Virus record (IMG/VR): IMGVR_UViG_3300020413_000049
Location: 1 to 29,609 of that record
Source: a virus
Taxonomy: Duplodnaviria > Caudoviricetes
DNA length: 29,609 nt
Direction: 5' to 3' (one strand)
Made by a program: the position numbers and the translations under genes. Position 1 is the first letter of the stretch, and every line of letters begins with the position of its first letter. This document shows positions 135-17,775 of this stretch, piece by piece. The notes under the pieces were generated by a model. The model saw only the letters and a list, made by a program, of their open reading frames with translations. It ran no database searches and had not been told where the DNA came from.

Positions 135-292
135 GACCATAATCTTCTTAACTGACGAACATCAGTTACACCATATAATGCTTTAACAGTTGATTCAGCA
201 TCTTCTCTTAAATTAGATGGTGAGAAAAACTCTACTCTTGTTAATCTATTTGACTGTAACATTATCTGTGCAGTCCATTTAGTTTCCTTCAT
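131..292 (-). CDS. Small hypothetical phage protein (53 aa)
   Basis: Manual translation MKETKWTAQIMLQSNRLTRVEFFSPSNLREDAESTVKALYGVTDVRQLRRLWS*. Fills the gap between neighbours and overlaps both. Not in the ORF track. Confidence 0.7.
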   Translation of the reverse strand: MKETKWTAQIMLQSNRLTRVEFFSPSNLREDAESTVKALYGVTDVRQLRRLWS

Positions 293-1643
293 TTAAATTC
301 TCACTCCAACAATATTCTGGTTCTGGTTTCATAGTATCATAAATGTTCGGATGATTCAATAGAGCTCTTCTATAAGCACCAAATTTAATTCCCCTACCCC
401 AACCAAGATGTTCTCCAAACAATTCTTTTTTTGTCATCGATTTATTATCTTTAATTAATTGAACTAGTTTATCTGTTACTTCTGATTTTGTTTGATGTAA
501 TGTATTAACTAACCCATTAATATAGTTGCTCATAAAATTAATTTCATCTTCATATAAAAGATTATTTTCAATATAATCTATAGACTCTACTGATTTTTTT
601 GCACGATAACTTGGATCATCTAGATATTTATTTAGAAGAACTATAGCTTCTTTATTAGAAGTAAAAAAGTCTGCTGTAGGATTAAGTTCGTGATAGTAGT
701 CAGCATCATACATGATAAAAGGACAACCATTCATTAAACCATCTGTAGTAGAAACACTCCATCCACCATACTTTTGTTTGGGTGAAAACCCTACACAGCA
801 TTGACGAAGTTTTTCATAGTAACCTTTTTTATTAAATTTATCTGTAATAATCCATTTCTCTTTTGGTTTTTGATCTAATAAAGGCACCCATACTTTAAAA
901 TCTTTTCTGGTTTTCCGTAACTCTTTGACTATCTCTATAAAATTTTTATAATCTTTATATGTCTCTGGTCTATGATTAAATACAATAATTTTTTCATAAG
1001 GAATTATAGTTTTATCAATATCTCTTTTCTTAACGCCAAGATGTTGAACTTGTATTTTATCTTTTAAGTCTTCTATAATATGTGTATTAAAAACTTCAGA
1101 AGCTTGTTCTATAACCATTCTTTTCTGTGATTCAGTATTTACATAACAAGTATCCATTTCTAGAATACCTAAAATGTTTTTATTAAAACTTGGATGAGAC
1201 CATGTAACAACATCATGTAAATCAAACCAATGAGAATATCCAAAGTAAGCTGGACTGTGATGTGTAATATTACTAACTACATTTTTAACATCAGATGTAT
1301 GTTCTGGAAGATGTGAAAATACTAAATCAAAATCAAAATCATGACCAACTAATTTCTTGAATGTAAATACATCAAAGTGTGATCTCATCGTTGGCGGATA
1401 AGATGGAAACTTCATATAAAGTTGTTTGACATTTGGAAAATCTACACAATCCAAATACTCAGGCAGAATCATATAAAAGAATAGATCACTTCTAATCTTA
1501 TTCAACTCAGTTATCATATTTGTAATAACTTGAATGTAACTATCCTTTCTTAAATCTTTTAAGTAAGTAATGTTAGGATAGATTAGAATACGAATAGTCT
1601 TTCGTAAAATTATTTCATCTTCAATAAAAGCAGTTAAGTTCAT
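279..1643 (-). CDS. GT-B fold (GT4-like) glycosyltransferase, possibly DNA-modifying
   Basis: 454 aa with a two-Rossmann-domain pattern: RILIYP, FDLVFSHLPE, IIVFNHRPETYK, and a C-terminal nucleotide-sugar-binding-like segment YGGWSVSTTDGLMNGCPFIMYD. ATGA overlap with the upstream gene. Confidence 0.75.
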   Translation of the reverse strand: MNLTAFIEDEIILRKTIRILIYPNITYLKDLRKDSYIQVITNMITELNKIRSDLFFYMILPEYLDCVDFPNVKQLYMKFPSYPPTMRSHFDVFTFKKLVGHDFDFDLVFSHLPEHTSDVKNVVSNITHHSPAYFGYSHWFDLHDVVTWSHPSFNKNILGILEMDTCYVNTESQKRMVIEQASEVFNTHIIEDLKDKIQVQHLGVKKRDIDKTIIPYEKIIVFNHRPETYKDYKNFIEIVKELRKTRKDFKVWVPLLDQKPKEKWIITDKFNKKGYYEKLRQCCVGFSPKQKYGGWSVSTTDGLMNGCPFIMYDADYYHELNPTADFFTSNKEAIVLLNKYLDDPSYRAKKSVESIDYIENNLLYEDEINFMSNYINGLVNTLHQTKSEVTDKLVQLIKDNKSMTKKELFGEHLGWGRGIKFGAYRRALLNHPNIYDTMKPEPEYCWSENLNEGN

Positions 1644-2755
1644 CGTATGATATCAATGGTATTCAAAGTTTTTTCGTTCCAAACTTCAAGTTCAGTTCTA
1701 AGAGTATTCTCTTTCTTTAATTTATCAAATCTTTTAGTGGCTCTTTTCTTCCACCACTGAATTAAATTTTTTAGATAAAACTTATCAAAATTAATTTCAT
1801 TTTTAATTAACTTATCTGTTTTACCTAGTAGAACTTCTCTGACATTACCATATCCATAATCAGACATATAAAATCTTTTCTTTGTGGTTACATCTTCACG
1901 GCTTTTGATAAATTGTTTGAACTCTTCAAATTTATCTGGATGATTTTGTTTTAATGAGTTCTTAATAATAGAAATCATTTTTGTTTGTACTTTTAGTTTA
2001 CGACTAGAAGCACCTTTATGAATTAACTGTTCTCCATCATTCTTCTCTATAAACCACTTATGTAAATCGTGATATATGTTATCAGGTAGAGTAAGAAGAA
2101 ACTTTGAATCAGTGTCGCCAAGATATTTGACATATGGTTTTAGTCCGTCATATTGACTTGTACCTTTTATATTACCATACAATGATGTAGTCTCAAATAG
2201 ACACATTTCTGTATTGTATTTTTTATTCAACATTTGTCTGACTTCATGAGAAGCACAGACTAGAGATAACAATTTACCACCCAGATAATTATATCCAAAT
2301 GGTTGTACAGGTACAATAATGAAACCCATTATTGCCCTCTTGTTGAATATGGTGAGGTCAGGCACCCCTCCAAGGTACTCGTTTCTAGGTCTTGAGTTAA
2401 TTATGGGCGATCCAAGTTTAATGAATCCTACAACCTTATTTGTGGTTGTTTCTTGAATTATGATTTTTACTTCTTTGCCAGGCGCATCTTCATATGTAAA
2501 AGATGCTGTCATTTCCAAAAGAGTATTAAAAGTAGAATGATCAGGTGTTACAATTTTGAAATCCATATCTTGTGGACTCATATCATAACTTTGAAAGAGA
2601 TCATCTTCCCATTTCATACCAAAAAGAGGAGTCGGAATCTTATTGATTCGCTCCATCTTTTTCATACGAAAATAATCATCAATACGTTCTACACCATCAT
2701 ACGCTTGATGAATTTTACCATAAGCGTATAGTGTATCTTCTGGAGTTAAAATCAT
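1640..2755 (-). CDS. DUF4338 / Druantia DruA-like protein
   Basis: 371 aa with motifs PGK..., VGFIKLGSP, PFGYNYLGGKLL, ETTSLYG and SQYDGL, which I recognise as the DUF4338/DruA pattern. ATGA overlap with gp44. Confidence 0.7.
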   Translation of the reverse strand: MILTPEDTLYAYGKIHQAYDGVERIDDYFRMKKMERINKIPTPLFGMKWEDDLFQSYDMSPQDMDFKIVTPDHSTFNTLLEMTASFTYEDAPGKEVKIIIQETTTNKVVGFIKLGSPIINSRPRNEYLGGVPDLTIFNKRAIMGFIIVPVQPFGYNYLGGKLLSLVCASHEVRQMLNKKYNTEMCLFETTSLYGNIKGTSQYDGLKPYVKYLGDTDSKFLLTLPDNIYHDLHKWFIEKNDGEQLIHKGASSRKLKVQTKMISIIKNSLKQNHPDKFEEFKQFIKSREDVTTKKRFYMSDYGYGNVREVLLGKTDKLIKNEINFDKFYLKNLIQWWKKRATKRFDKLKKENTLRTELEVWNEKTLNTIDIIR

Positions 2756-3699
2756 TTAAATTTGCAATCACACATAATTTCAGTAAAACAAGCAAGTGTA
2801 TTGATCTCTTGATCAACAGCAAATGCAGCCTGATACTGATATTTAGCAAGAATCAATATAGCCTGTGGAATCGACATTGGTTCTAGCGCATTATATAAGG
2901 TATCGTAGACTCTACGAATAACAATATTAACATCATTGTCAAGATTGTCAACTGTCCACTTTCTTACATCAGCAAAGTTTTTTGTTTTCAATGCTGATAT
3001 TAGTCCTGTAAGATTTACTTCTGACATCATTGATAAGATGCCAGTATCTATTTTTCCACATGCAGAATATCTCTGCAATTCGTTTAGCGTTCTCCGAAAG
3101 TCTGGGAAATACTTTTGTATAACTTCTGCGAGTACTTTTTGATCGCACTCGATCCCTTCTCCGCCAAGGATCTTAGAAACCTTTTTGAAGAAAGACGATG
3201 CAAGAGAAGCTCTTTCTCTTCCTTTGAAAGTAAAGTCAAAAACGGCACATCTGGAATGGAGTGGTTCGATGATTTTGTTTTTGAAGTTGCAGGTGAAGAC
3301 GAACCTACAGTTGGCGTGAAACGTTTCAATATTCGCTCGTAAAAGAAGTTGGACATCGTTGGTAGTATTATCTGCCTCATCAATAATGATGACTTTTGGT
3401 TTGCCGTTACCCTGTAACGATACAGTAGAAGCAAAGTTTTTAGCTTGATTTCTTACAGTATCTAGGAATCTTCCTTCGTCAGAACCATTGATAACATAAT
3501 AATCAACACCTAATTCATTACAAAGAGCTTTTGCAATAGTTGTTTTACCAGTACCAGCAGGCCCAGCAAGTAAGAGATTTGGAATCTCTCCTTTGTCAAC
3601 AAATTCTTGAAAAGTCTTTTTTATGTTATCTGGTAAAATACAATCTTCAATTTTTTGTGGTCGATACTTTTCGACCCAAAGAAAGTTTTCACGCTTCAT
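2752..3699 (-). CDS. gp44: Clamp loader large subunit (AAA+)
   Basis: LWVEKYRP, Walker A GPAGTGKTT, Walker B IIIDEAD, SRC motif. Follows gp45. Confidence 0.97.
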   Translation of the reverse strand: MKRENFLWVEKYRPQKIEDCILPDNIKKTFQEFVDKGEIPNLLLAGPAGTGKTTIAKALCNELGVDYYVINGSDEGRFLDTVRNQAKNFASTVSLQGNGKPKVIIIDEADNTTNDVQLLLRANIETFHANCRFVFTCNFKNKIIEPLHSRCAVFDFTFKGRERASLASSFFKKVSKILGGEGIECDQKVLAEVIQKYFPDFRRTLNELQRYSACGKIDTGILSMMSEVNLTGLISALKTKNFADVRKWTVDNLDNDVNIVIRRVYDTLYNALEPMSIPQAILILAKYQYQAAFAVDQEINTLACFTEIMCDCKFK

Positions 3700-4354
3700 A
3701 AGTTGAATCAGGTTCTAGGGCAATCCAATACACTAAATCTAAACTTGTATGTTTAAACACAGATAGATTAGGATGGGATATAGTTACATCGTATACGCCT
3801 GGCAATATTTTTAAGTTTTCAACTTTGAAATTGAAACAGAAATTTGCAGTTGTATTTCCTACAGAAACAGCATAAGTGTTTGAACTATTGTTCTGTTTGT
3901 CTCTTGCAACAAAAAGCATGTCACCATCTTGACTAATCAAAGATAAGTCAGCAAGTTGATATACACTTGAAGCTTTGAGCAATGAGTTGAGATCAACATC
4001 AGATAGTTGAAAAGTTACATCTTCACTAGGAAGATCAATATCTCTTTCTGGAGGAGCAGTAATTACACTAGCATCAGAATAAAAATATTTGGTGCAAGAT
4101 CTACCACTTTTAATTTTAACATAAGATTCATCAAAAAGAAAGTCTGGATCTTTAAATAAAGATACACCAGATAAGAACTCATTTAAATCATAAAGGGCAA
4201 AATCACGTTCAAAAGTTTCTCCTCCATTATACTTAGCATAAATGTTTTTCATAGGAGAGATTGTCCTAAGAACATTTCCAGTCTTCACAACTAAGGAAGG
4301 ACTGATATTAGAGAAATTTTTAAGAACGTTAAAGGTTTCAGAAGATAAATTCAT
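3689..4354 (-). CDS. gp45: Sliding clamp
   Basis: 221 aa. N-terminus LSSETFNVLKNFSNISPS, DFALYDLNEFL, C-terminal YWIALE. Adjacent to gp44. Confidence 0.95.
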   Translation of the reverse strand: MNLSSETFNVLKNFSNISPSLVVKTGNVLRTISPMKNIYAKYNGGETFERDFALYDLNEFLSGVSLFKDPDFLFDESYVKIKSGRSCTKYFYSDASVITAPPERDIDLPSEDVTFQLSDVDLNSLLKASSVYQLADLSLISQDGDMLFVARDKQNNSSNTYAVSVGNTTANFCFNFKVENLKILPGVYDVTISHPNLSVFKHTSLDLVYWIALEPDSTYEA

Positions 4355-4659: not shown

Positions 4660-4688
4660 AACATATTTTTAAGGATGTATACATTTTA

Positions 4689-5831
4689 CTATGAAAATGT
4701 CTCTATGTCAACAACATCTGTTTTTGCAGTTGTTTTTTCTTCAGCAACTTCTTCAGGCATTACGATCTTATCGTATAAGTCTAAGAATGATTGTTTTGTT
4801 TCTTCATCAAAACGATTTAAGCAAACTTGAATTGCTTTAGTTTCATTTTTAAAGATAGAAAAAGCACGAACAATATGTGTTAGACGGCGAGTAGAAATAA
4901 CTTCATCTACACCACCTTCAGCAAATGTCTTACGAATAATATCTGCCCACTTAGTAAGATTTTCAATGAAAGTTTTATTTGTCTTACCATTCAACTGAAT
5001 ATCAAGAGCAGTTAGAATCTTTTGTTCTACTGATTCAGAGGGATATTCTTGTTCAAATGTGAGGGCGAATCTTTCAAGGAAGGCTTCATTGAGCACGTTA
5101 GTTCCAATAAATCGTCCATCGTCTGAACCTTTACCCTTAGTATTTGCGGTTGCGATGATATTGAATCCTCGCTGGGGTCTAACGAAACTTCCAATTTTTT
5201 TAAGGTAAACACCAGATCCCTCAAGGATTGACTGAAGGCAGAGGATCTTGTTAGAGGCAAGGTCGATTTCGTCAAGGAGCAAGATTGCACCTCGGTTGAG
5301 GGCTTCGATGACTGGGCCATTGTGCCATACGGTTTCACCATTAACAAGGCGGAAACCACCAATAAGATCATCTTCATCTGTTTCAATAGTAATGTTTACA
5401 CGAATAAGTTGTCTTCCGAGTTGAGCACACGCTTGTTCAACACCGAATGTTTTTCCATTACCAGATAATCCAGTAATGAATGTTGGATAAAATACACCAG
5501 ATTTAATAACTTTTTTTATGTCATTGAAGTTACCAAAAGGCACATAGTTTGGATCTTTAGCAGGAACTAGATCCTTAGCATTTAAATATGCAGTATCAAA
5601 AGAATCTACTAACATTGGTTTTGCAGTTTTGGTTTTAAAATTCTTTTCTAGTTTTTCTGCAATTGATAGATTCCATACACCTCTAGAAGCTTTGTATGGT
5701 TTTAATCTTTTAAGAACAGTAGAAAGAGAAACTCCTAATTTTTTGGCAGTGTCAGTGATTTGTTGACGAGTCACAGTTGTGCCGTGTTGAGTCTTCAGAT
5801 TTTCAAGAATTGTTTCAGTTGTGATGATCAT
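4689..5831 (-). CDS. cobS: CobS-like MoxR-type AAA+ ATPase with N-terminal HTH-like region
   Basis: Walker A GLSGNGKT, DLIGG, Walker B LLLDEID, TANTKGKG, NEAFLERF, ISTRRL. Confidence 0.9.
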   Translation of the reverse strand: MIITTETILENLKTQHGTTVTRQQITDTAKKLGVSLSTVLKRLKPYKASRGVWNLSIAEKLEKNFKTKTAKPMLVDSFDTAYLNAKDLVPAKDPNYVPFGNFNDIKKVIKSGVFYPTFITGLSGNGKTFGVEQACAQLGRQLIRVNITIETDEDDLIGGFRLVNGETVWHNGPVIEALNRGAILLLDEIDLASNKILCLQSILEGSGVYLKKIGSFVRPQRGFNIIATANTKGKGSDDGRFIGTNVLNEAFLERFALTFEQEYPSESVEQKILTALDIQLNGKTNKTFIENLTKWADIIRKTFAEGGVDEVISTRRLTHIVRAFSIFKNETKAIQVCLNRFDEETKQSFLDLYDKIVMPEEVAEEKTTAKTDVVDIETFS

Positions 5832-5854: not shown

Positions 5855-5883
5855 ATTATAGTTCAAACGCTTAGCGTTGTCAA
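5855..5883 (-). promoter_or_regulatory. Sigma70-type promoter for cobS
   Basis: Perfect TTGACA (5883-5878), 17 bp spacer, TATAAT (5860-5855). The spacer contains the inverted repeat AACGCT-N-AGCGTT. Confidence 0.85.
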
Positions 5884-11178: not shown

Positions 11179-11576
11179 AACGTAACTGTTCCGTCACTTG
11201 TGTTTATAGTGATATCTTCACTACCCATAGGGGATGAGATAATAGACCCTTCACCTATCGTAAATGTAGTAGGAGCTTCTTCGTCTGTTGTAATTACTAC
11301 AGACATTGGTTTTTCTTTTGGTTTGTGATCTTTCATACCGCCATGATTTCCATCATTCGGTAATTTACCATAAGCAAGATATTCAACAGCTTGAATTGAC
11401 CCTTCGAGTCTTTCCAATTCTTTGTTGTACTTTAACCAGTCCTCATGTGCTAATCTTACACTTTCTTGTTTTTCTTCAAGTTGTAGAACTCTTTTACTAA
11501 AGCGTTGTAACAACTGTTCGTAATTTTCTGTTGGTTTCAAAACTTTTTCCTCTGGTTCTAGGTTTCCGTGTTTCAT
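11175..11576 (-). CDS. Hypothetical protein (coiled coil plus Thr/Ser-rich tail)
   Basis: 133 aa ORF with ATGA overlaps at both ends. Confidence 0.75.
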   Translation of the reverse strand: MKHGNLEPEEKVLKPTENYEQLLQRFSKRVLQLEEKQESVRLAHEDWLKYNKELERLEGSIQAVEYLAYGKLPNDGNHGGMKDHKPKEKPMSVVITTDEEAPTTFTIGEGSIISSPMGSEDITINTSDGTVTL

Positions 11577-12043
11577 CGATTCCGAATTTCTAATGTTTCT
11601 TTGATACTATTCATATCAGAAGCATTGTACCCGACTGCACTAGAGTCAGCACTAAAGACTTCATCAAATCCAGATTTTTCCAGCAATTTGTTTTTTATAT
11701 CCAACTGCTTCTTTTCTTTTTGAATACGTCTTAAGAAGGCGTAGTAAATAATTTGAGTAAAGTAAGCAAAGGGATTAGTAGATTTTGATGGATCAAAGTT
11801 ATCAATATATTGTAAACAGTTTTCTATACCATCACAAATCATATCATCTTTAAACATGTAGTTAACAAAGTTTGGACGATAAGATAAATGAGTAGCAATT
11901 TTTAGAAAACACTCACCAATATAATCTGGCACTTTTGGATGAGGTTTATCCTCTTCCGCAGCTGCATGAACCTTTTTACGATAAATGACTAGAGCTTCTA
12001 GAAACTCTTTGTTATTAACATAATGTTCCTTTTTCTTAGCCAT
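11573..12043 (-). CDS. gp55: Late transcription sigma factor
   Basis: HYVNNKEFL, YIGECFLKIATHLSYRPNF, NPFAYFTQIIYYAFLRRIQKEK. Confidence 0.97.
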   Translation of the reverse strand: MAKKKEHYVNNKEFLEALVIYRKKVHAAAEEDKPHPKVPDYIGECFLKIATHLSYRPNFVNYMFKDDMICDGIENCLQYIDNFDPSKSTNPFAYFTQIIYYAFLRRIQKEKKQLDIKNKLLEKSGFDEVFSADSSAVGYNASDMNSIKETLEIRNR

Positions 12044-14479: not shown

Positions 14480-16138
14480 TTAAGTCAGAATTTGATCAAA
14501 TGGTGTAATCCAGTCTTCGCTTGGGTTTGTTACAGTAATAACATCCATACTTCTTGCTTGCAATTTAGCAATCAATTGATCATATGATGCTTGAACAGTT
14601 TGCATAGTCATACTACCAGAGGTATCAACAAATATCGCTACTTTAGATCCATCAGGTAAACTATCTAGGCCACATATGGTATACCAATCTGAAGCATTTG
14701 AAACTAAACCACCATCACGATTAACGTGTATAGGGCCAAAAGTTTTTCCTATATGATTCTTACCAATATATGAAGTATCATTTATTGTAATTTCTGGTGT
14801 GTATGCAATAATAACTCCATCAGCATTAAGAACTTGTACAATTATTTTTTCTGCTCCTTCTGTTTTACCATCTCTTAACACAGGTATTGTAATAACACCT
14901 ACGTTACTGTTTATTGTAAATGTCTTTGTTTGGTTACTAAAATCTCCACCATCTCCGAATGTTATAGTACTACCACTAGAAGCAACAACATTTGAAGTTA
15001 ATACTGTACCATCTGCAACACCACTAGTAGCAACGTTAATAACAATATTAGTTGTACCACCATTAGGAGATTCGTTAATAGATGTAGCCGCTGGTGTTAA
15101 TCCTATAGTAAAAGCAGTGTCTTCGATAATAGTATTCATTGTAGCTACTATTGGGCCACTCGTTGATACTATACGAATATTTACTGTTAGAGTTTCATCA
15201 GATTCAACTGTTAAATCTTGTTTAGCAGTAAGAGTAAATGTTCCTGTATTACTTGTAATTGAGAAAGAGCCTGTAAGTGGGGTAACATCAGTGCTTGACA
15301 GATTAACTGTATAATATAAAGATGTACCATCTGGTACTCCAGTAGTATTGACAGTATAAGTTACAGTGTTACCTTCAACAACAGTATTTGATCCAGAAAT
15401 ACTATAAGTTGCAGCAGAAGTATCTGCTACATTAACTGTGTTAGATGTTACTACTAAAACACCCGCCTCACTTATTTGTAATGCAAAATTTTCAGCACCT
15501 TCAGATACACTATAATCATTTATTATAGTTCTAGTAATAGTTGCAGTATTATTATTAACTGTAGTAAGCCCTGATAGAGTATTATCAGAAAAATCTTCTG
15601 CTTCTACAGTACCAGTTGTATTCCAATACAGACTTGTGCCATTTGGAACATTGGTTGTTGTAATTGTAAATGTAACTGTATCTCCCTCGTTAACATTTGT
15701 AGAAGATTCACTAACTGAATATGTTGGGGCAACCTGTGTTTGTACTAGAGTACCACCAATACCTTTTACAACTATTTTTTTATCACCAATAGTTACTTCA
15801 TCACCTAAAGACTTACCACTAATCAAACCATTTTGATCAAAATTAAGTGTTACTGTTGCTGCATTATTTTTTACAACTACTTGATCATAAGCAACAGCTG
15901 GAAAATATGTATACTCACCCTCGATTAAATTACCAGTTAAATCTATAGTCTCACCATGATTCCATAAGACTATATTAACAGGTCTACCTAAATTACTAGT
16001 TACACCAGAACTAGAAGATGTAAGCATAGTATTAACAGTACCCATATAGTCTTGAACTATATCATTAGGGCCAAACATACCTTTATACTCTTTCAACCAA
16101 TGTTTGAAATTCTTTTTATTGTTGGAAGTTAATGTCAT
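14480..16138 (-). CDS. Putative virion protein with three Calx-beta/Ig-like repeats and a C-terminal VWA-like segment
   Basis: Thr/Ser/Val-rich. Repeats TYSVSESSTNVNEGDTVTFTITTTNVPNGTSLYW, TYSISGSNTVVEGNTVTYTVNTTGVPDGTSLYY and FTIGLTPAATSINES...TSGVADGTVL. C-terminal AIFVDTSGSM. Confidence 0.7.
   Translation of the reverse strand: MTLTSNNKKNFKHWLKEYKGMFGPNDIVQDYMGTVNTMLTSSSSGVTSNLGRPVNIVLWNHGETIDLTGNLIEGEYTYFPAVAYDQVVVKNNAATVTLNFDQNGLISGKSLGDEVTIGDKKIVVKGIGGTLVQTQVAPTYSVSESSTNVNEGDTVTFTITTTNVPNGTSLYWNTTGTVEAEDFSDNTLSGLTTVNNNTATITRTIINDYSVSEGAENFALQISEAGVLVVTSNTVNVADTSAATYSISGSNTVVEGNTVTYTVNTTGVPDGTSLYYTVNLSSTDVTPLTGSFSITSNTGTFTLTAKQDLTVESDETLTVNIRIVSTSGPIVATMNTIIEDTAFTIGLTPAATSINESPNGGTTNIVINVATSGVADGTVLTSNVVASSGSTITFGDGGDFSNQTKTFTINSNVGVITIPVLRDGKTEGAEKIIVQVLNADGVIIAYTPEITINDTSYIGKNHIGKTFGPIHVNRDGGLVSNASDWYTICGLDSLPDGSKVAIFVDTSGSMTMQTVQASYDQLIAKLQARSMDVITVTNPSEDWITPFDQILT
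14770..15724 (-). repeat. Three diverged ~100-115 aa tandem domain repeats
   Basis: Repeats start near 15724, 15409 and 15117. Each ends in an E-x-x-E...I/V-x-D-T motif (EGAENF...VADTS, ESDETL...IEDTA, EGAEKI...INDTS). Confidence 0.75.
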
Positions 16139-17775
16139 GGCACTGCTGTAAATTTGTTTCCATTTGCATCACCAGTGTTTAGCAAATGATTATACATTGT
16201 TGAATTTCCTTGCTTCATATTTTTTGCAGATATTCTAATTTCAAATTTTGTTGTATCATATGCATCTATATTTGTTGCTCCAATTGGATCTCCTTTCTTT
16301 TTTTTAATCATTCTAGCATTTGATTCTAATAAGGCAATTGGTACAACCGTAATTATAAAAAATGGAGTCGCTGGTTGCATATCTAATAATGATCCAATAG
16401 AATCAGCTGTTTGTTGATTTGTAGCAGATTGAACTTTATTGAGAAAAGGATCAGCTGATGCAACAGAACTACCTCTATTAAATCCATAGTTTTCTGCATA
16501 AACAAATTCATTAGTTGCTGGATCTACAAATGGTACTGAAGTTGTATCACCTCTATTTAATAATGTTAAATGCCATCCCCAATCAGGTTCATTAGTTCCT
16601 GATTTATTTGGTGTAGTGCTTGGAATATAAGCTTTAAAATCAGATCCATCTGGAGCTCCTGTACTAGTGGTATTCATATGTCCAGCCCATCTTTTCTGAA
16701 CATGATCTGGTGGTCTCCATTTATATGGATTTGAAGCAGTACCATCAGGTAAATTAAATTGGTTAACTCCGTATTTTCTTAAATTAGGAAGCCACCATGC
16801 TTGAAGCATTAAGTTAGCAGCCATAGGTGCTGCTGCTAATAATTCAAGAGTTTCTTTAATTTTTATAAGTCTTGCAGCTTCACCAAGAGCAGTTCCATTA
16901 CCGTAGATATCATCTTTTAATGCATCTAAAAATGCTTTTAACTGTGCTTTATGTGTAGCAAGAGCTGTATCAAAAAAATTAGATCTATTTGTATCGTTTA
17001 AATCACTTCCAACCTCAGTCTGATCACTAGCACTCAAACTATTATATCCGACACCAGATGCGTTAGCAGCTTCACCAAAAATCCAATCCATACCACCCCA
17101 TGATCCATTATTGAGAAATGATAAATCAGGAACCCAACCACCACCATCAGGGTTGTCAGCTGGTGTACCATTCGTAGAACCTACACCACAAGTACCAACA
17201 TTTCCACCAAAAATTTGTGCTTGTACACTATTTCCACCTACTAGATTCCATGCTGCATGTACATGATTTGCAACTGCACCACTTAGAGGTGCTAAAAATG
17301 ACCATGTATTAGGATCAGTTTCAGTATAACCACCAGTAGCTACTTCAACCCAAATGAGTGGAGCTCCACTAGTCATTAAATCTCTTACTTGAGCAAAAGT
17401 TGTATTAACCCCACTCCACCATACGTTATTTTCATCATATTGATCACCATTACTATCTGTATCAAAAGCACCTCTTGGAAAAGAATACCAACATTGTTGA
17501 ACAAATCCTATTTGTCCGAGTTGTAAACTCATTTTAATTCTTCCAGAAGCTTGGGTATCGACTCTTCTACAATAAGGACCAAGACTATATGTTGAAGTTT
17601 GAATTTGTTGATAAAAACTTCTAAATGGTGATGGATAAGAATTAACACCTCCAAATTGCCAATTGTTCTTATTATCTCCTACATTTCCTGTGACTGGAGC
17701 ATACTTAGTCAATGGAAGCATAGGAGAAGGTTGAGCTGCTCCTACTGGTATTGGACTGGAAAATTCTGCGGTCAT
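16135..17775 (-). CDS. Hypothetical Gly/Asn/Trp-rich late protein (546 aa)
   Basis: Long ORF directly after a perfect TATAAATA, with an ATGA overlap to the next gene. No family recognised. Confidence 0.8.
   Translation of the reverse strand: MTAEFSSPIPVGAAQPSPMLPLTKYAPVTGNVGDNKNNWQFGGVNSYPSPFRSFYQQIQTSTYSLGPYCRRVDTQASGRIKMSLQLGQIGFVQQCWYSFPRGAFDTDSNGDQYDENNVWWSGVNTTFAQVRDLMTSGAPLIWVEVATGGYTETDPNTWSFLAPLSGAVANHVHAAWNLVGGNSVQAQIFGGNVGTCGVGSTNGTPADNPDGGGWVPDLSFLNNGSWGGMDWIFGEAANASGVGYNSLSASDQTEVGSDLNDTNRSNFFDTALATHKAQLKAFLDALKDDIYGNGTALGEAARLIKIKETLELLAAAPMAANLMLQAWWLPNLRKYGVNQFNLPDGTASNPYKWRPPDHVQKRWAGHMNTTSTGAPDGSDFKAYIPSTTPNKSGTNEPDWGWHLTLLNRGDTTSVPFVDPATNEFVYAENYGFNRGSSVASADPFLNKVQSATNQQTADSIGSLLDMQPATPFFIITVVPIALLESNARMIKKKKGDPIGATNIDAYDTTKFEIRISAKNMKQGNSTMYNHLLNTGDANGNKFTAVP

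Follow-up and report, generated by a model that had tools for sequence, protein, structure and literature searches.

What does a relative of DruA, a protein of the Druantia type I system, do beside a glycosyltransferase (GT) in the replication operon of a phage? The question is raised by a 29,609-nucleotide stretch of viral DNA (IMG/VR record IMGVR_UViG_3300020413_000049, positions 1 to 29,609; hereafter the window), which is the whole 29.6-kb contig of an uncultured marine T4-like myophage. On its minus strand the clamp-loader gene gp44 is followed by a gene for a 371-amino-acid (aa) protein of the DruA/DUF4338 family and then by one for a 454-aa GT-B glycosyltransferase. We favour, with moderate confidence, the reading that this pair modifies the phage's own DNA sequentially, by a Mom-like aminoacylation of adenine and then a glycosylation. 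That the pair modifies DNA is the best reading because the folds of the two proteins, their wide co-occurrence and the DNA-directed genes around them (TAGT-family enzymes, nucleases and ParB fusions) agree with it. The features concerned are:

1640..2755, minus strand: DruA/DUF4338-family GNAT-fold protein, 371 aa; predicted first enzyme (Mom-like) (PF14236, PHROG 19197, structure model)
2498..2506, minus strand: ASF, residues 84-86, signature of the GT-linked DruA clade (T/S-S-H in most GT-less relatives)
1820..2578, minus strand: GNAT core, residues 60-312 (range aligned to Mom 20-232)
1643..1657, minus strand: near-invariant C-terminal IDIIR of the DruA-like protein, which differs from the polymerase-type clamp motif
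279..1643, minus strand: GT-B glycosyltransferase with a winged-helix-like tail, 454 aa; predicted second enzyme (structure model, Foldseek)
498..1601, minus strand: GT-B (GT4-like) catalytic part, residues 15-382 (VIA-align to 7qsg, Z 27.7, root-mean-square deviation (rmsd) 3.0, 340 residues aligned)
306..491, minus strand: C-terminal winged-helix-like domain, residues 385-446, with conserved WGRGIK..YRR (secondary structure of the model, Atlas)

Linkage of the two genes

The initial annotation had presented the two genes as one module, and their co-occurrence indeed extends far beyond this genome. Of 56 distinct GT sequences taken from viral loci, 53 have a DruA-like gene within 2.6 kb; the other three loci are cut off upstream, and the GT was never seen without DruA wherever the flank is long enough. 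This GT-anchored sample is in part the best 80 of 289 loci, in which distant GTs are under-sampled, and it excludes a 54-residue fragment (L054). The pair is found in the gap between gp44 and gp62, after gp43, and in an inverted island beside gp55. The window's pair is placed in the gp44-gp62 gap because a 99% identical contig, where small open reading frames (ORFs) come after the GT, has gp62 and regA downstream. The order of the two genes is reversed at loci L102 and L107, and at L103 the pair adjoins RNA-repair and NAD genes.

A set of 185,579 prokaryote genomes yielded six loci of the GT, two of them phage contigs within metagenome-assembled genomes. DruA is adjacent at three of the six, and at the remaining three the upstream sequence is shorter than 400 bases. 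L208 and L209 probably carry the two halves of a single gene. On the bacterial-looking contigs of L206 and L208, which have housekeeping genes around, the GT is paired with a distant DruA, and no lipopolysaccharide (LPS) genes were found among the 17 proteins scanned there. One of these contigs (L206:5977-9359; L208/L209) carries a DruA of 621 aa and one has the pair near an integrase.

Seen from DruA (best 80 of 603 loci, from 7 of 64 collection parts), the partner varies: 16 loci have the GT, 16 have a gene of a 330-aa family unrelated to it (c25), one has only another GT4-like gene, 35 lack all of these and 12 do not extend far enough. In a tree of DruA sequences, one clade (FastTree support 1.0, 72 tips) comprises 53 tips with GT, 13 with c25, six truncated and none partnerless, while the tips outside it are 36 without partner, six short and three with GT; because the tree takes in the GT-anchored loci, its GT count is inflated. 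Inside the clade GT and c25 were swapped at least eight times, some of the nodes being weakly supported. Residues 81-86, 195-198, 214-222 and 291 are specific to it. Among informative loci, a GT-like neighbour occurs in 33 of 33 where residues 84-86 are ASF versus 0 of 30 with S-H, a signature that was defined post hoc on the data it is scored on and is largely a marker of one clade (exceptions: L102, L103 and L107).

The c25 family is probably a GT as well, judging from its sequence profile, for which T4 BGT ranks first among the non-members of 2572 targets (a weak match, E 0.008). It matches nothing in Pfam, PHROG or the PDB sequences, its best 120 relatives bear no informative name, and comparisons by hhalign with BGT and AGT, like that of its profile with the 454-aa GT, were not significant. 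That c25 might share the tail of the GT was ruled out by the c25 C-termini. The GT profile, run over four GT-less contigs (12-51% complete), found no GT elsewhere in them. In Pelagibacter phage HTVC008M (L198:6001-8711, that is 84548-87258 of the genome) c25, a cupin/JmjC gene and a second DruA paralogue are consecutive, and another DruA follows gp43. Several cultured cyanophages have DruA alone, among them S-SSM7, S-SM2 and S-CAM9; the DruA of S-SSM7 is of the SH type. The DruA-like gene has relatives in phages of marine Synechococcus and Pelagibacter, and metagenomes contain more than 6000 DruA-like clusters. A longer second DruA subfamily ends in QVGR (L192; L199:5929-7227); L192 carries a tandem pair of DruA genes, and phage Mosig has one DruA beside MazG with no GT nearby.

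A GNAT fold for the DruA-like protein

The 371-aa protein matches Pfam DruA (PF14236) with E 1.2e-11 and 44.8 bits against a curated cut-off of 27, and 107 of its 109 aligned relatives match the family too. In a fold search with VIA-align over 48,161 chains, its model (pLDDT 91.6) found Mom of phage Mu (8bv8) first (Z 10.1, rmsd 3.6, 167 residues aligned), and the 50 matches listed (Z 7.9-10.1) are, with few exceptions, GNAT-fold proteins by title. Foldseek gave no match at E<=0.001; its best E was 4e-3 and the matches listed are mostly acetyltransferases. Neither the protein nor its profile found anything meaningful among PDB sequences, Mom is not among the first 14 families ranked for the DruA profile, and the Mom family is absent from the Pfam matches listed for DruA relatives (25 of 35 families). 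The protein is therefore not filed in the Mom family, its sequence similarity to Mom being undetectable; by its model it is a GNAT-fold member of the DruA family that may work like Mom. DUF4338 is also described as a GNAT in the accessible text of an earlier study (PMC10853773).

Mu Mom, whose catalytic residues are R111, S124, D149 and R151, shares with the 371-aa protein the GNAT fold and the origin in a phage, and a homolog of the latter in phage S-SCSM2R carries the GenBank label 'methylcarbamoylase mom'. The two differ in length (371 versus 241 aa), in the place of the gene, which lies in an early replication operon and not a late one, and in the GT partner. Mom moves glycine from Gly-tRNA onto the N6 of adenine in a loose SASNY consensus, according to the available part of PMC13219725, whose main text mentions, as far as it is accessible, neither DruA nor glycosyltransferases. 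Fusions among the 19 long DruA relatives scanned join the family to ParB_N (four), a UDG-family domain (one), GIY-YIG/NUMOD3 (two) and LAGLIDADG (one).

A GT4-like glycosyltransferase with a conserved tail

No Pfam or PHROG family matches the 454-aa protein itself, and 35 of its 92 aligned relatives match PF00534 weakly; nothing meaningful was found among PDB sequences with the protein or its profile. Its model (pLDDT 89) is a GT-B fold, for which Foldseek returned 7qsg (E 3.2e-13) and VIA-align the retaining GT4 enzymes BshA, MshA and PimB (Z 25-26), then WaaG (21.9) and the GT of phage HY126 (21.8), at 8-15% identity to the GT4 fold matches. Among the 92 relatives H111, E114, H115, R225 and K230 are invariant and D301 is near-invariant; the first five probably resemble GT4 donor-binding residues. 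Relative to the retaining GT4 enzymes that are its best folds (7qsg, BshA, MshA, PimA/B and WaaG, Z 22-28), the protein has an additional tail, and nearly all of its relatives are viral. Metagenomes gave 1260 relatives (clusters) at E<=0.001. The GT4 matches cover residues 15-382 only, not the conserved tail, and residues 413-446 are the best-conserved segment of the protein. The tail (385-446) reaches TM scores of 0.73-0.74 to HxlR/ArsR winged helices (Atlas), under the bar for naming it. In base composition the gene (279-1643) is the most AT-rich among those measured, with a GC content of 0.28 versus 0.34 for the window.

The initial annotation had guessed a GT-B enzyme after the manner of T4 and a GNAT/Mom-like partner. 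The GT-B fold and the GNAT fold, with Mom first, are borne out; a likeness to T4 AGT/BGT did not show among the fold matches listed, by which the enzyme is GT4-like instead. Like T4 AGT/BGT and the TAGT family (PF20691), it is a GT-B enzyme encoded in a replication region, and some of its relatives add a TAGT; unlike AGT and BGT it has the winged-helix-like tail, and it gave no significant profile match to them. A further known case of phage DNA glycosylation compared with the pair is the arabinosylation of HY126/RB69. The GT4-like fold leaves the substrate undecided, because BshA, MshA and PglH are also fold matches of phage GT-Bs that are proven to act on DNA, according to the accessible text of 10.1101/2023.12.21.572611.

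A full-length fold neighbour, the 501-aa GT of Arthrobacter phage Kitkat (gene 88, TM 0.78), was set aside as a relative since its sequence link is not significant; no DruA match was found in 47 of the 58.6 kb of Kitkat. Genes 88-100 of this phage (L202:30767-37929), with two GT4-like genes, a ParB-like gene and an S-adenosylmethionine (SAM) methyltransferase, are possibly a separate DNA-modification cluster.

Other genes in the slot and the search for a hydroxymethyl route

A TAGT-family gene is present in nine loci, five with the GT and four with c25. Its identity is given by Pfam (E 1e-21 and 1e-12 for the two tested) and by a PHROG 'beta-glucosyl-HMC-alpha-glucosyltransferase' (E 9e-30). 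Eight of nine distinct TAGT tails end in a C-terminal motif that is shared with the polymerase gp43 (26 of 31 tails) and found in 7 of 934 other tails; in T4 this motif presumably binds the sliding clamp gp45. Such tails suggest that the TAGT-family proteins (L098:2039-2851 and eight further loci) ride the clamp. The same role for the window's DruA-like protein or GT was rejected, neither C-terminus having the polymerase-type motif.

Other genes of the slot encode GmrSD-HNH and Tsp45I nucleases, endonuclease VII, an N6/N4 methylase, a cytidylyltransferase and a weakly homing-nuclease-like family. Nucleases of the GmrSD-HNH and Tsp45I types stand beside or between the two genes (L116:2179-3672, L140, L102:5238-5999). 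These nucleases could tell modified from unmodified DNA.

Co-occurrence with C5-methylase or dCMP hydroxymethylase genes, which the initial annotation had proposed to look for, was not seen: thymidylate-synthase-type (PF00303) and C5-methylase (PF00145) genes were found in none of five records (two GT fragments, two with c25, and the complete HTVC008M, which has c25 and not the 454-aa GT), with controls that worked. In the records tested, four of them less than half complete, the pair appears to differ from T-even and TET-linked glycosylation, where a thymidylate-synthase-type hydroxymethylase, or a C5-methylase together with TET, is expected.

A predicted modification pathway and its alternatives

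Along the pathway that we propose, the DruA-family GNAT would put an amino-acid-derived group on an adenine of newly made phage DNA, and the GT-B enzyme would next add a sugar to that group, held on the DNA by its winged-helix tail. By analogy with Mom, the donor would be an aminoacyl-tRNA. The sugar would be accepted either by the hydroxyl that a Ser/Thr-type donor brings or, on a carbamoylmethyl group of the Mom type, by the terminal amide. In some relatives the weakly BGT-like c25 would carry out the second step instead, and the sugar would be lengthened by a TAGT enzyme that has a clamp-type tail. Such a modification would shield the phage from host nucleases and from those encoded in the same slot.

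The folds, the operon position and the gene linkage are observed; the DNA target, the N6 of adenine as the site, the tRNA donor and the order are inferred. GNAT first and sugar second is suggested by the distribution of the genes, since DruA occurs without the GT and, given enough flank, the GT was never seen without DruA. Two unrelated partners alternate, suggesting that what they share is a chemical intermediate and not a dedicated interface; either partner can be followed by a TAGT whose tail is of the clamp type, which would place the product on replicating DNA. As the records tested showed no hydroxymethyl route, the simplest sugar acceptor would be the product of the GNAT. The DNA base-modifying pair of the initial annotation is partly supported, by folds, co-occurrence and DNA-directed neighbours, and the order is probably the reverse of the one it had proposed, sugar before GNAT.

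Several results weigh against this pathway. On the side of the GNAT, other members of the fold reach Z 9.5 and Mom leads by less than one Z unit, and hhalign detects no sequence similarity between the 371-aa protein and Mom (probability 0.1). By fold the GT is closest to GT4 enzymes that act on small molecules, glycolipids, LPS and proteins; T4 AGT and BGT are not among its 50 fold matches listed, and its profile comparison with either, each as a single sequence, was not significant. No TAGT is present in the window itself. In 35 of the 80 DruA-anchored loci the three GT families are all absent within 2.6 kb, the GT is found in 0 of 31 phage records having a DruA-like gene, and the linkage lies mostly in one clade and is phylogenetically non-independent. 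In a mirror-distance test the distances of GT and DruA correlate no better (rho 0.80-0.84) than those of GT and gp44/gp62 (0.87-0.90), so there is no sign of cassette movement, and transfer of the pair as a cassette is unsupported. Of the five records searched for a hydroxymethyl route, four are 43-47% complete, and the TET search had no working control; nearby 2-oxoglutarate (2OG)-Fe(II)/cupin genes could provide a hydroxyl.

This last point leads to an alternative that we consider unlikely, in which DNA is still the target and the order differs or the enzymes act independently: the GT would glycosylate a hydroxylated pyrimidine, and the GNAT would acylate the sugar or mark adenine separately. 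The hydroxyl would be made elsewhere, by a divergent 2OG-Fe(II) oxygenase or a synthase, and the two genes would share a modification hotspot. TAGT and BGT normally use hydroxylated pyrimidines, 2OG-Fe(II)/cupin genes lie beside the GT (L102) and between c25 and DruA (HTVC008M), the co-divergence of a cassette is missing, and the hypermodified pyrimidines described in the available part of PMC13326640 are all built on C5 substituents, mostly hydroxyls. That no PF00303 or PF00145 gene was found in the five records tested, the complete HTVC008M among them, speaks against it, as do the GT accompanying DruA to several genome positions and the conserved residues peculiar to the GT-linked DruA clade. 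A protein or RNA substrate, acylated by the GNAT and glycosylated by the GT for host takeover, replisome function or anti-defence, appears quite improbable to us. GNATs mostly use proteins and small molecules, Mom is just tied first among the folds, and the serine-glycosylating SdgB is among the fold matches of the GT; a DUF4338-DndF fusion was also taken as a protein-targeting effector (PMC10853773, accessible part). Against these points, the clamp-type tails of TAGT, the slot nucleases, the winged-helix-like tail and the ParB fusions all indicate DNA.

That the GT is an LPS or cell-surface enzyme for superinfection exclusion, adjoining a replication-region gene by chance, would suit its GT4-like fold, the level Z scores of WaaG and the HY126 GT, and the many GTs of marine T4-like phages taken as O-chain modifiers in the accessible texts of PMC7029224 and PMC7824862. 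It fits poorly with a GT that was never seen without DruA given sufficient flank, with bacterial-context copies that adjoin DruA and no LPS genes among the proteins scanned, and with a conserved tail outside the GT4-matched range, and we hold it to be very improbable. Least credible in our view is a captured Druantia subunit, serving as decoy or counter-defence, beside an unrelated GT. The Pfam DruA match agrees with such an origin, as do the DruA-like proteins of six Synechococcus phages, recorded by Phold as defence-protein look-alikes (10.1101/2025.08.05.668817, as far as accessible). Against it, the putative active site is strongly conserved, the linkage with the GT is tight in one clade, and no other Druantia gene was found among the 29 ORFs scanned in the window, which is a fragment.

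Relation to Druantia type I

The DruA of Druantia type I belongs to the same Pfam family (PF14236) as the 371-aa protein. The phage DruA differs in being stand-alone and coupled to glycosyltransferases, with no druB-D or DruE seen; its neighbours are gp44, the GT and, in relatives, gp62/regA, and in the window, although this is a fragment, phage replication genes flank it. Druantia I has no methylase domain and yields a PacBio call of N6-methyladenine (m6A) in CAGCTGNC, the responsible gene being left unidentified in the accessible text of the report (10.1101/2024.04.14.589459). The CAGCT of this mark is compatible with SASNY, a loose consensus. Since the mark fits the Mom consensus, DruA is a candidate for its writer and may be the missing modifier of Druantia I. 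The wider proposal, that a widespread group of ocean phages makes glycosylated adenine through a sugar chain on a tRNA-derived amino acid, without any hydroxymethyl-pyrimidine step, and that bacterial DruA writes the self-mark of Druantia I, misread by PacBio as m6A, is one that we put forward tentatively and regard as rather doubtful in its entirety.

If the proposed pathway holds, sugar-decorated DNA would start from adenine aminoacylation, not from a hydroxylated pyrimidine, in phages whose genes abound in metagenomes, and the adenine mark of Druantia I would become directly testable, with DruA as the obvious candidate. Virion DNA can be analysed now, because HTVC008M (two DruA genes and c25) and the DruA-only cyanophages are cultured. 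A literature search, with subscription journals mostly outside its scope, found no paper on the DruA-GT pair, and the available part of PMC12458937 holds nothing about DruA.

Operon context and other features of the window

The two genes and both of the ATGA overlaps described in the initial annotation are real, the latter appearing as TCAT on the written strand at 2752-2755 (gp44/DruA) and 1640-1643 (DruA/GT). They show no special coupling, because such joints are common in the window: 6 of 28 junctions have ATGA and 15 of 28 overlap in some way. There is also room for a promoter, which had been denied, in the form of a candidate site within gp44. Context genes and promoter candidates are as follows:

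3689..4354, minus strand: gp45 sliding clamp (Pfam PF09116, PHROG 223)
2752..3699, minus strand: gp44 clamp loader large subunit (PHROG 168, E 1e-132)
4683..4711, minus strand: sigma-70-like early promoter candidate, 11/12 (consensus scan), just 5' of the DUF3310-gp45-gp44-DruA-GT run
5855..5883, minus strand: perfect sigma-70 consensus, 12/12 (consensus scan), 5' of the cobS-like gene, which could also read into the run
2951-2924, minus strand: weaker sigma-70-like candidate, 10/12 (consensus scan), within gp44

The consensus scan returned 27 sigma-70-like sites in total versus 27.4 by chance. Early co-transcription of the DruA-GT pair with gp45 and gp44 is plausible.

Pfam and PHROG scans identified terminase, sheath, portal, gp23, uvsW, gp55, gp47/46, a cobS-like gene, gp45 and gp44, all on the minus strand. 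The window's gp55 (11408-11576 region and 11573-12043) has the C-terminus LEIRNR, without the polymerase-type motif. Between a tail-tube-like gene and uvsY (14480-17775) lie two ORFs of 550 aa, one with no match and the other with a weak Ig-like one.

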